A stretch of 64,000 nucleotides of DNA from an uncultured Ruminococcus sp. (GTDB lineage: Bacteria; Bacillota; Clostridia; Oscillospirales; Acutalibacteraceae). This document shows positions 45,936-49,838 of the stretch, in pieces (positions within the stretch are counted from its first letter, which is position 1; every line of letters starts with the position of its first letter). The stretch lies in NCBI GenBank assembly GCA_902776375.1, contig CACYPV010000006.1:893-64892 (forward strand), read 5' to 3'. The notes beneath the pieces were generated by a model. The model was not told where the DNA came from, ran no database searches, and worked only from the letters and a program-made list of their open reading frames with translations. The position numbers and the translations under genes are program-made.

Positions 45936-48900
45936 TTATTTGTATCTTCTGCCGTGTCTGCTTTTGCGCTTTGCGCGGGCGCGTCTGTCATATACGATAT
46001 AACCCGCAGCCATAAGCAGAGCCGAGCCGAATATACCGAAGCCGATGAACAGGAATGTTCTTACTCCGGGGCCGCCCGAAGCGGGATCGATGACCGCGAC
46101 GTTGGTGTAGTCGAACGTTACGGCGTACTGGCTTTCATACGGGAAGGTGACCAGCTTGGTGGTTTTGTTGGTATTGTAGCCGTCTGTGGGCGAATACTCA
46201 AACACCAGATAGGTCTGAGGTGTGAAGGTGCCTTGCAGATAGTTCGCGCTGTTCACCCAAGTGCCGGATTCCACATTGTAGATCGGGTCGCCGTTCTGGT
46301 AAATCGGAAGGTTCTCGAAGTACGCCTGCGCCTTGCCGGATTTTGCCGTTGTAGGCTTGATGATAAGGTCGTTCTCATCCATAGCGAGAAGGGCGTTGAG
46401 CTGAGCTTCGGTGGGAAGCTTGTCCTCAGCCGCGACCTTGATGACCGCAAACTCGGTGTCGTAAACGGGATCGCCGGCTTGGTCGTCCTTGTTTACGACG
46501 ATCTCGCCGTACTGAACGGTGTTCTTAAAGGTGACGTCGGTGGTTTCGGTGGTGAAGTTGCTGTTTGTGTAGAACTTAAGCGTGCTTCTGTCGATCTTTA
46601 ACGCGCCGCCGTCGCTTATGACACTGAAGCCGGTGTAGATAACACGGGAATCATAAACCATGCCGTCGGGTGAAGAAACTGTGGTCGGCGCGGTCTCTGT
46701 GATGCTGTAACGGTAGTTGCCCGGAGTGGTGAAGTTCAGGCTGAAGTTGACTTCGCCGTTGCTCGCGTTCGAGGTGACGACCTGAGTGGTAGCGGGGTTG
46801 GAAACATAGGTTGTTCCGCTTTTGCCGCCGCTTGTCATCGCGTTCAGTTCAAAGTTGAACAGCGTTCCGGTATAATCCTGTCCGTCAAGAGTTTTGTTGA
46901 CGGTAATGGTATCTGCGCCGCTCTGCTTCGTGTTGGTGATGCCGATGTTGCCGCCGCCCGCGAGGTTGGGCTTATTAACGGTGATCCAGCCGCCGTTGCC
47001 GTCCTCGGTAACGCCGTTGGATACGCCCTGATAAACGTAGCCGGTGGGCATCGAGGTCTCGGTGACCTTGAACTTAGCGCCTACGGGAATGCCCTCGAAG
47101 GTGAGCGTTCTGCCATCCTTAAGCTTCGCGCCGCTCGCGAGCTTGCCGTCGCTGCCGAGCTCAAAGGTTCCGTTAAGGTCGGACGCGGTGTATTTGAGGC
47201 TGTAGGGACGGAAACCGAGAGAATCGGACAGCGCCACTGTAACAACAGCGTCAAACTCGGTAGCGTCGTCTTGGGTGCCGCCCGCCACGGTCTTTGTAAC
47301 GCCTACGGGAGCGGTAAGGGGTTTGTTCTCGTAATCGATCTGCAGCTTGGCAAATTCCATAAGGTTCGGATTCGACACATCATTCACAAGCTGCTTGGTA
47401 TCGGTAGAGAAGCCGCTTTCGGGAAGCTCGTCAACGCTGCCGTTCGAAGCCGACTGATTGCCGACCTTGTCGGTATACTGCCACTTACTGTCGTAGGTGA
47501 GGTAGCTCGACGACAACTGCGTCTGCTTTACCGAGATGGTTTCTCCGGTAGTGAAGGCGTTACCGAAGTCCGCCTCGCCGCCGTCTTTCAAATCAAAGCT
47601 TGAGCCGCCGAGGGTGAACGCGCCGTCGCTGAACTTTGCTCCGCTGCTTGAGGACGTGATATCAACGCTCTTTAGGTTTTTGCCGTCGTTGAAAACCGCG
47701 CCCGTAGCGCCGCTCGGGATAGATATTTTGTAGTCTCCGCCGCGGGTATAAGCGGTCATCTGGGTACCGGGCCATGAAGCGCCCACAGTGCCGCTGCTGT
47801 TGAAGAAGTAGCAATAGTACTTATTCCAGCCCAAGTTGTGCGCGTCGAGGTACAGATAGCTGCTGCCCGCGTCTGACGGGATACCGCTCGTCCATTTTTT
47901 TGCCGTGTAATTGGGCAGACTTTCGGAGCCGGATTTTGCGCCGTATTTAAGGCTGGCGATCTCGTTTGTTCCGTCGCCGCCGTAAGGAGTGAATGTAAAG
48001 CTGTCGAGCTCTTTAACAGTTTGTCTTAAGCCTTCGTTCACGTATGTTGTATCGATTTTTTCGGTAACTACTACCTCGTTGCCCAAAGGAACGAAGTTGA
48101 AGTTAAAGCTGAGGTTGGATTCGATCATACCTCTTTCAACATAGAACATAGTCAGAGTGTGCTTCTCTGTAGGATCTGTGTTGCTGAGCCATGTAAAGCT
48201 TTGGTTACGTGTAGCGCCGTTGAAGGTGTGACCCGTATCTACCGTAACCGTTCTGTTGGCAAAATTGATCGTGCCGGTCGCCTTTTTGTGGTCGCCGCCG
48301 AGGTCGAGAACAAGCTTTCCGTCAATGTAGACCCAAACGTCGTCGTCGCCCGTGAAGGTGAACTTTTCATCAACGCCGTTGTTCTTGCCGTTCATGCCGA
48401 TGTTGAAGTCAACATCGATACGCATTCCGAAGCCGTAGTTCTTAGCCACTACATTGCCGGTCCTGTCGCCGTCAAACGGGAAGAAGCCATAGCCGCTCGT
48501 CTCTCTGTCGGAATAGGAGTAGAGCGAATCCTGCGCTTTCTTGCTGTTTTCAGCATAGGATACGGTAGGACTGCTTCCGCCGAGACCGTTGAACCAAACG
48601 TTATCCTTGCCGTTTGTGCTGTCAAAGTAATAGCCCATTACGCCGTTCTCTTCAACCATGCGCATGGGGAACTTTGAATTGACCACCGAACCGACTTTCT
48701 TTGAGCTGAGGAAGTCCTCATCGAAGAAGGGAACGGTCGTTGAGCTGTTGTAGCCGCTGTTTCCGGCGTATACAAGCTTGCCCGTCGCCTTTCCGTTGTC
48801 CAAAGTGCCGCCCGTAAGGCCCGCGACCGACTTATGGTTGCCGCCGATGTTGTTAGAGTTGTTCGCCTTATTGTTGAAATTCTTAAGGTTTGAAGAACCC

Positions 48901-49838
48901 TCACCGGTGTATCCGTCGTTCTTTCCGTAGAAGTTACCGAAGTAAAGCGGATAGTTGACACTGCTGTCATGCTCGGCGATCTTGCTGTTCAGATACTGGA
49001 ACGGCTCCCAGTAGCCCGCCCACCAATACCAGTTGTTGTTCTTGGTGTAGTGGACGGAGGCGTGGTTGGACTCGTAATTGATATTGCGCCAACCCTTCTG
49101 GATCTCATCGTCGTTGTAGTAATCATAAAATGTCGCGTCAATGGTGTAAAGATCGCTGTTGCCGGTTATGGTGCTGTCGGGATTTGCCGTCTTGGAACTG
49201 TAAGACGCGTTGTTCGAGGGACGGAAGCATGTCCATTCAGCGGGACTGTAGCCATCGTTGCCCCAACTTTTGATCTTTATACAGTTGGATTTGCTGCCCG
49301 CGGTTTTTGTTCGCTGGTTATCCCACATATAGTACTGAGTCAAATTCCACTTTTCGGTAGCACCGCTGTTGGTTCTGACGACACGGACATGGCTGATCTT
49401 GTCGCTGGGGATCCTGAAACGATAAACATGGTCGCAGAATTTGTCGGCCTTGATACCCTTTTGCAGGACATTGGAACCCGAAAACCAGCCGTCGTTCTGA
49501 AAGTTTTCCTCAAACTCATGGCAGTAGTTAGCGTCGACCGAGTCGTTGTAATAAGTGAAAACTCTGATCTCAGCACCGTCTTTGTCCCAAAAATCGTTGT
49601 TGCCTATCCGGCAGTCAATGAAAATACATTCATTGTCGATAAAGGCACTTTCGCCCTGAGCTGAAACCATGGGCACGGCGATAACCAGTGCCGAAGCCGC
49701 AATCAAAACCGAAAGCAAAACAGCCAGCACGCCGAGAAGCGATCTTTTACCCTGACGCGATGTGTATTTTGTAGCTTTTTTTATAATTACCATCTTCCTT
49801 TCTTTAGATTTTTTCGCATTACCGCGCGGCGTCAGCAC
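45936..49838 (-). CDS. 1300-aa pilus tip adhesin candidate: fibro-slime/PA14-like region, CBM25/26-like module, several Cna-B/isopeptide-type domains, DPASG sorting signal
   Basis: [25 protein letters not shown] (about 48290-48362); [35 protein letters not shown].. (about 47655-47861); [22 protein letters not shown] and [11 protein letters not shown]; C-terminus IDPASGGPG, a TM helix and a basic tail. The start is either GTG 49838 or ATG 49793. Confidence 0.85.
   Translation of the reverse strand: [1300 protein letters not shown]

Follow-up and report, generated by a model that had tools for sequence, protein, structure and literature searches.

In sortase-assembled pili, a large first gene whose product has an adhesive head usually encodes the tip pilin, as is the case for SpaC, RrgA and EbpA, and in these proteins the head consists of vWFA/MIDAS or thioester-type domains that target host proteins or mucus. 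Substrate adhesion is believed to be important for primary degraders of resistant or granular starch, and the known devices for attachment to starch are wall-anchored amylases and amylosome proteins bearing carbohydrate-binding modules (CBMs). Here we describe a pilus operon on the minus strand of a 64,000-nucleotide stretch of DNA from an uncultured Ruminococcus sp. (contig CACYPV010000006.1; hereafter the window), in which the gene for a tip-pilin-like adhesin is followed by genes for a major pilin and two sortases. We favour, as a reasonably probable reading, a sortase-assembled pilus of a rumen-type Ruminococcus whose tip adhesin binds α-glucan via a CBM26 module. All the parts are of known kinds, and it is their combination that is new. 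The full-text literature searched holds no sortase pilin with CBM26 or any other starch-binding module, which bears out a preliminary description of this DNA, whose author was aware of no such pilus. A pilus with a starch module would be a third means of attachment, with a longer reach.

The closest described systems each share part of this arrangement. The CBM26 domains of gut Firmicutes, such as those of Sas6 (7uwu/7uww), Amy4, Amy10 and Amy16 (9qf3, 9qf8, 9qf9) and Amy13K (6b15/6b3p), have the same Pfam family, predicted β-sandwich and Tyr/aromatic/Trp-Pro-Gly platform as the module in the window. In Ruminococcus bromii and Eubacterium rectale, however, they are found on amylases or on amylosome proteins with dockerins, mostly as tandem copies or next to a CBM74, whereas here a single copy sits in a loop of an Ig-like pilin domain, and the protein has no catalytic domain, dockerin or cohesin. 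SpaC (Lacticaseibacillus rhamnosus, Corynebacterium diphtheriae), RrgA (Streptococcus pneumoniae) and EbpA (Enterococcus faecalis) are alike in their order of tip, shaft and class C sortase genes, their isopeptide-type Ig-like stalk, their sorting signal and their N-terminal adhesive head. The protein in the window differs from them in having a fibro-slime/PA14-like head with a CAZy-type starch module, an xPxSG motif and a likely dietary-polymer target. With fibro-slime/PA14 lectins (Marinomonas RTX adhesin PA14, 6x7x, 6m8m) it shares the GDDDxWVYIDG motif and a weak structural match, but here, unlike in the Marinomonas PA14 adhesin, the fibro-slime domain is joined to a Gram-positive pilin stalk. 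Finally, sortase-pilus genes or proteins rise on starch in Bifidobacterium adolescentis 22L, Bifidobacterium pseudocatenulatum MM0196 and Bifidobacterium globosum 45, and the authors of those studies leave the function of the pilins open (PMC11286577; PMC13271388). The bifidobacterial pili likewise couple sortase pili to starch use, by expression alone and with no starch-binding pilin module reported, while in the window the link to starch lies in the sequence of the tip protein. The locus therefore offers a hypothesis for starch-linked pili that can be tested by mutation, as the starch module can be recognised in its tip pilin.

The tip-pilin-like protein is laid out as follows.

45936..49793, minus strand: gene of the tip-pilin-like adhesin, 1285 aa from an ATG at 49793 (open reading frame (ORF) list and translation).
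49659..49793, minus strand: signal peptide, residues 1-45, with a basic N-terminus, a hydrophobic core and VSA|QG, read from the translation.
49194..49649, minus strand: N-terminal β-rich domain, residues ~49-200, conserved in the family; all-β in the AlphaFold2 (AF2) model, with pLDDT >90.
48099..49181, minus strand: fibro-slime/PA14-like head region, residues ~205-565.
48111-48443, minus strand: TIGR02148 core, residues 451-561, with the fibro-slime hallmark motif at 48282-48356.
47304..48098, minus strand: host β-sandwich domain, residues ~566-830, with the CBM26 in the loop after FTFTP.
47589..47912, minus strand: CBM26 module with its linkers, residues 628-735 (Pfam, match to PDB sequences, AF2, Foldseek).
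47643-47855, minus strand: confident CBM26 core, residues 647-717.
47001..47300, minus strand: stalk domain 1, DUF7601/DUF5979-type and Ig-like, residues 832-931; Pfam PF24547, 46.3 bits against a cutoff of 27.
46515..46907, minus strand: stalk domain 2, FctA (Spy0128-like, isopeptide-bond type), residues 963-1093; PF12892, 37.8 bits against 22.1.
46104..46505, minus strand: stalk domain 3, SpaA/prealbumin-like, residues ~1097-1230; weak Pfam SpaA match.
45939..46091, minus strand: cell-wall sorting signal, with IDPASGGPG (residues 1235-1243), a hydrophobic helix and a basic tail, from the translation.

On its Pfam profile, predicted fold and key residues, the module classes as a CBM26. When a 142-aa segment was scanned alone, the Pfam CBM26 family PF16738 was matched over profile positions 3-64 of 70 with E = 3.8e-9 and 37.0 bits, above the gathering score of 28.1, so the profile check proposed in the preliminary description comes out in its favour. 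The full-length Pfam scan of the tip protein does not list CBM26, and PF16738 is missing from the precomputed Pfam list of the identical database protein, meaning that routine annotation hides the module. Modules of the CBM26 type may be annotated too rarely in long surface proteins with many domains, and since this one lies just over the Pfam cutoff and is missed by full-length annotation, similar cases are possibly hidden in other genomes. The peptide picked out earlier at about 47655-47861 (SYLYLD...KSVDI) lies on the minus strand at 47658-47861, a difference of 3 nt from the start then given; it comprises residues 660-727 of the 1300-codon ORF, or 645-712 when counted from the ATG at 49793. 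It had been said to align with the three modules of the GH13 amylase in the window, and this holds: BLASTP in a single comparison reaches all three CBM26 copies, with E = 2e-4, 0.004 and 0.007. Identity to the amylase copy quoted at the time is 28% over 103 aa (BLASTP), and to the amylase modules in a multiple alignment it is 18-24%.

Searches against wider sequence sets agree with this classification. A phmmer search of PDB sequences found two modules of R. bromii Amy16 (9qf9) with E = 1.8e-7, and a HMMER pass over 1.84 billion cluster representatives gave 418 relatives of the module at E <= 1e-3, 102 of them at E <= 1e-10, with identities to the module of at most ~48%. All eight of the relatives that were scanned score as CBM26 in Pfam. 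In an alignment of the module with 63 relatives (A3), the near-invariant columns are the tryptophan of GW, the Tyr of YxY/W and the sequence W-P-G, and the tip module keeps every one of these residues (W656, Y662, W674, P675 and G676). The A3 profile matches R. bromii Amy16, Amy10 and Amy4, the CBM26 of E. rectale Amy13K, the Sas6 CBM26, and both CBM25 and CBM26 of Bacillus halodurans. Modelled by AF2 on A3, the module is all-β, with pLDDT of 88-96 over module residues 20-90. In a Foldseek comparison of this model with the PDB, the top 20 matches are all starch-binding CBMs and no unrelated fold appears among them, an outcome that agrees with the structural check suggested in the earlier work. 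The matches include 2c3w, 7uwu/7uww, 6b15, 2c3h and 7rft (by name, B. halodurans CBM25, Sas6, Amy13K CBM26, B. halodurans CBM26 and Sas20 domain 1), with probability 1.00 for 2c3w (target TM 0.69), 6b15 (query TM 0.62), 7uwu and 2c3h; even the match at rank 20, pneumococcal SpuA (2ya1), is a carrier of CBM41 modules.

The residues that would contact the ligand can be compared with those of a characterised relative. In Sas6 CBM26, W63 and Y55 are the stacking residues for the ligand, to which Y53 contributes a hydrogen bond, and in a module of Lactobacillus amylovorus the equivalent Trp (W32) is essential (bioRxiv 10.1101/2022.11.20.514607). By A3-profile alignment, Sas6 W63, Y55 and Y53 correspond to W674, F664 and Y662 of the tip protein, so the aromatic ligand platform is retained as Y662, F664 and W674. 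As this is the Tyr/aromatic/Trp platform that packs against α-1,4-glucan helices in solved CBM26 structures, binding to starch chains is predicted. The isolated R. bromii Sas6 CBM26 binds maltooligosaccharides and cyclodextrins with a Kd in the hundreds of micromolar (10.1101/2022.11.20.514607).

Downstream of the tip gene lie the remaining genes of the operon, listed here with the flanking elements.

49794..50200, minus strand: AT-rich stretch 5' of the tip gene, 25-35% GC in a composition profile.
44452..45891, minus strand: major (shaft) pilin, 479 aa, 44 nt downstream of the tip gene.
43371..44282, minus strand: class C (pilin-polymerising) sortase 1; NF033745, 276.7 bits against a cutoff of 160.
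42527..43369, minus strand: second sortase, closest to class C; Pfam Sortase, 72.7 bits; NF033745, 153.5 bits against 160.
42271..42297, minus strand: terminator-like hairpin of 11 pairs with a T-run, ~230 nt past the second sortase (consensus scan).

The preliminary description had placed the adhesin in a pilus, and these neighbours agree with it. The major pilin matches NF033902 (SpaH/EbpB-family, LPXTG-anchored) with 98.9 bits against a cutoff of 95, has Pfam GramPos_pilinBB and SpaA domains, and, as read from its sequence, has the E-box YTLVETNPPKGY and a VMPATGGPG sorting signal followed by a helix and a basic tail. It is followed by the two sortases, the first of which has a DPF lid-like motif (IIDPFDKE, read from the sequence); the second falls just under the class C cutoff. 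The hairpin is a candidate for the end of the operon. The order of tip, major pilin, class C sortase and second sortase genes is repeated on an independent contig, L001. Within the tip protein, the isopeptide-type stalk domains that had been proposed downstream of the module are present: the DUF7601 and FctA domains score above their Pfam cutoffs, and the third is weak, with SpaA at E = 0.019, below the Pfam cutoff, and an E-box-like motif read from the sequence. There is also a weak match to TIGR03786 at the FctA domain. The sortase signal stands in part, in that the C-terminal motif, helix and basic tail are there, but the motif is an xPx[ST]G variant and not LPXTG. Variants of the xPx[ST]G type are seen in family members of the tip protein.

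The head upstream of the module had been described as a fibro-slime/PA14 domain. The hallmark motif is present, and in the full-length tip protein the NCBIfam TIGR02148 fibro-slime match reaches 52.5 bits against a cutoff of 45; the Pfam PA14 half of the claim falls below its cutoff, at 21.6 bits against 24. An AF2 model of 791 aa (m269b410aa421), in which construct residues 1-560 are protein residues 45-604, is confident over this head part, with pLDDT mostly >90. Foldseek matches to the 791-aa model are all of low TM (Spy0128 pilin, PA14 and GH2 sugar-binding domains), among them the PA14 sugar-binding domains 6m8m and 6x7x with probability 0.99, and the N-terminal domain was not resolved in this search. 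That domain has no match in a Pfam scan. Its pattern (IFID..W..IRVFTYY..YRFRIP..VRVVRTN) is CBM25/26-like, with the WPG motif absent, and its alignment (A4) matches the CBM26 alignment A3 in hhalign with a probability of 59.7% and E = 8.9e-5. Some family members (P0059, P0064) have 'GSFNGW'-type modules in its place. The N-terminal domain is possibly a divergent or degenerate CBM25/26-like sandwich, which we offer as a lead only.

We then see the same kind of module in other tip pilins. The best 150 of the 418 module relatives were screened against the non-module parts of the tip protein, which yielded three full-length proteins (P0181, P0145 and P0178) and one fragment (P0237). Each of the full-length proteins joins a fibro-slime head to a stalk of the FctA/DUF7601/SpaA type, ends in a tail that resembles a sorting signal, and contains one or two CBM26 modules scored by Pfam; all three are encoded in operons with tip, major pilin and sortase genes. 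The four-gene layout is repeated with P0145 and P0178; the contig of P0181 stops after one sortase. They differ from the window protein in lacking an N-terminal domain of its type and in the site of the module. In P0181 and P0145 the CBM26 stands before the GDDD core and in P0178 and P0237 it is inside the fibro-slime core, at the equivalent of tip residues ~535-545, while in the window protein it occupies a third head position, in the domain that follows the fibro-slime core. These pilin-borne modules are 42-52% identical to that of the window and are among its top-scoring relatives, the nearest sharing 45-52% identity with it, and the window module clusters with them in a rough neighbour-joining tree without bootstrap values. 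Judged from these sequences, CBM26 appears to have been captured repeatedly by tip pilins, in at least three other metagenomic operons and at two other head sites. Repeated capture at different head sites suggests that selection favours CBM26 on these pili.

The closest alleles of the tip gene, by contrast with the window gene, lack the module. Among the best 120 of ~3200 whole-protein homologues, only the identical sequence has it, and in an alignment of the tip protein with five module-less homologues (A1) the CBM26 block is unique to the query. The alleles closest to the window protein, P0002 and P0003, are 83-87% identical to it by best local alignment, and are ~1143 aa long, with a short loop at the site of the ~110-125 additional residues of the window protein. 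A comparison of the tip protein with P0002, P0003 and P0131 gave the following identities to the closest alleles.

Residues 1-300: 90-100% identity.
Residues 500-950: 30-60% identity.
Residues 950-1100: about 90% identity.
Residues 1200-1285: about 90-98% identity.

Because identity changes along the protein in this way, the tip gene reads as a mosaic in which a central cassette (host sandwich, CBM26 and DUF7601) has been replaced. A clean single insertion of the module was considered and rejected, given the divergence of residues 500-950. The pattern suggests exchange of cassettes between strains within the adhesive and stalk-1 region. The allele with the identical module sequence is present in several independent assemblies (P0122, P0124, P0125 and P0127), and a protein identical to the whole tip protein (P0001) is found in NCBI, ENA and Logan assemblies. 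The GC content across the tip gene shows no clear sign of foreign origin. A word-index protein search with the 391-aa central cassette returned one distant match, P0283, but the index is apparently blind here, as the same search with the 108-aa module missed even the tip protein itself. In species-representative genomes, every homologue found comes from a metagenome-assembled genome (MAG) of herbivore-gut Ruminococcus/Oscillospiraceae, with cattle (rumen RUG bins), reindeer, roe deer and goat as hosts. Identity peaks at 64%, and the module is absent from all of them. Alleles with and without the module, together with the three insertion sites, are natural controls for its function.

In the reading that we favour, the first and largest gene of the operon would encode the tip adhesin, whose head consists of the N-terminal β domain and the fibro-slime/PA14-like glycan-binding region. 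In this allele the CBM26 has been grafted into a loop of the next β-sandwich, after which come three Ig-like stalk domains and the xPxSG sorting signal. The class C sortase would cut this signal and couple the tip to a major-pilin lysine, after which the shaft would polymerise and the fibre would at last be anchored to peptidoglycan, so that every pilus would end in a single CBM26. The predicted ligands of the module are chains derived from starch, such as amylopectin ends, maltooligosaccharides and solubilised starch. Acting together, many such pili would provide avidity and keep the cell near starch, where the dockerin-borne amylases of the window act. As the tip protein has no Dockerin_1 or cohesin match in Pfam, we place it outside the amylosome, and the pilus would act beside that complex and not as part of it. 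The analyses show directly which domains the protein has, the order of the genes, the place of the module in CBM26 by profile, fold and key residues, and the recurrence of CBM26 in related tip pilins; we infer the tip location, the ligand and the role in adhesion, the first of these from gene order and architecture. As a broader and more tentative proposal, which we regard as a serious possibility, substrate-tethering starch pili that work beside the amylosome may form a class in rumen Ruminococcus and its relatives, in which CBM26 has been captured at no fewer than three head sites and exchange of head cassettes between alleles would switch the pilus of a strain between starch and other targets.

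Several points weigh against this reading. The module is dispensable for the pilus, since the closest alleles do without it. The tip sorting motif IDPASGG is non-canonical when compared to LPXTG, no lysine of a pilin motif could be identified in the shaft protein, and neither a basal pilin gene nor a housekeeping sortase was seen in the operon. Confidence over the module is low in the 791-aa AF2 model, whose alignment left this region uncovered; short CBM26 fragments were scattered in the joint MAFFT alignment with the pilin family, and the module was modelled separately on A3. At the position of the stacking Tyr of Sas6, which is Trp in most relatives, the tip module has Phe, and the hydrogen-bonding K101 and Q103 of Sas6 are not conserved in it. 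Hydrogen-bonding residues vary across the CBM26 family, and granular starch binding by the isolated Sas6 CBM26 was undetectable (bioRxiv 10.1101/2022.11.20.514607). By analogy, a lone CBM26 may give only weak adhesion, and attachment to starch would need the avidity of many pili or cooperation with the fibro-slime head. The 'starch-granule attachment organelle' of the preliminary description is thus too strong a phrase, as the Sas6 module binds oligosaccharides weakly and, on its own, granules not detectably.

Three other explanations were weighed against these data. A chance or compositional resemblance to starch-binding modules would fit the missing entry in the full-length Pfam scan and the 18-28% identity to the amylase modules of the window. 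We give it almost no credence, as the segment alone exceeds the gathering score, 418 relatives are found at E <= 1e-3 and the fold match is specific to starch-binding CBMs; these results, with the A3-profile matches to solved CBM25 and CBM26 structures, refute it. An improbable alternative is that the CBM26 fold is real but its specificity has been changed or lost, so that the ligand would be a different glucan (glycogen-like microbial polymers, for example) or a glycan of host or plant origin, or the module would serve as a structural spacer or as variation within a mosaic adhesin. The central 450 residues are just 30-60% identical to sister alleles, as in diversifying surface proteins, the N-terminal modules of the family also vary, one platform position is Phe instead of Trp or Tyr, and the hydrogen-bonding positions differ. 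However, the near-invariant W656, Y662 and W674-P675-G676 are intact, and Phe at the third position is common to the nearest relatives, including P0224, which is attached to the C-terminal domain of an α-amylase. That separate pilus operons have acquired related CBM26 modules at three places in the head speaks for selection on binding, and α-glucan binding is common to all of the CBM26 members cited here.

It is similarly unlikely, in our judgement, that a functional CBM26 is displayed elsewhere than at a pilus tip, on a monomeric sortase-anchored wall adhesin (MSCRAMM-like) or on an accessory pilin of the shaft. It is only gene order, protein size and the architecture of stalk and sorting signal that place the protein at the tip, and the difference between its IDPASGG and the MPATGG of the major pilin possibly indicates another sortase. 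Head homologues in R. bromii that have no stalk, sorting signal or sortase neighbours show that such a head can work outside a pilus: a MAG of this species (GCA_022775865.1, L016 7001-11050) encodes a 1349-aa 'fibro-slime domain-containing' homologue of the head region, and the 1349-aa homologues have no Pfam matches and no pilin gene nearby, and adjoin a GH13 amylase and a CBM26-dockerin protein. On the other hand, the tip gene lies only 44 nt upstream of the major pilin and the two sortases, in a layout shared with P0145 and P0178, and the tip and major-pilin sorting signals both continue as an unusual GGPG.

We return to the tip gene itself to establish its start. The mechanical ORF spans 45936-49838 on the minus strand, with 1300 codons, a GTG at 49838 and an uninterrupted translation. 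Homologues of the tip protein begin with the residues MVIIKK, internal to this ORF, so the true start is probably the ATG at 49793 and not the GTG at 49838. A ribosome-binding site, AAAGGAAG, lies immediately 5' of this ATG. The protein read from there has a signal-peptide-like N-terminus and ends in a sorting signal with a membrane helix and a basic tail, both read from the sequence. The AT-rich stretch 49794..50200 is a probable promoter or regulatory region of the gene, and a consensus scan found no strong sigma-70 match on the minus strand within it.

Elsewhere in the window, the following features bear on starch use or flank the pilus operon.

33547-36966, minus strand: GH13 amylase with Pfam Alpha-amylase, three CBM26 modules and a dockerin; the amylase peptide in the preliminary description starts at residue 830.
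11473-13776, minus strand: protein with a CotH kinase-like domain, a weak dockerin match and a C-terminal CBM26.
37136-38029, 38156-39442 and 55104-56510, minus strand: dockerin-bearing proteins with no other recognised domain.
39576-41617, minus strand: MurT-like ligase and GatD-like amidotransferase, ~0.9 kb downstream of the sortases.
51295-53509: two-component system upstream of the tip gene, with a strong terminator and an AT-rich gap in between.

As the amylase, the CotH protein and three more proteins all carry dockerins, we conclude that the organism has a starch-degrading system of the cohesin-dockerin type, and the three extra dockerin proteins are possible further components of it near the pilus operon. 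At 11473-13776 a CotH domain and a starch-binding module occur together in one protein, which is unusual. Pairs of the MurT/GatD type amidate lipid II. Between the pilus operon and the two-component system is an ORF on the plus strand (50208-51236) with a cysteine-rich, CxxCxxCC-type N-terminus and no Pfam match. A minus-strand ORF at 50121-50852 has no family match, overlaps this plus-strand ORF, and is probably spurious. The plus strand at 8485-10695 encodes a fusion of a Ser/Thr protein kinase with seven RCC1-type repeats.

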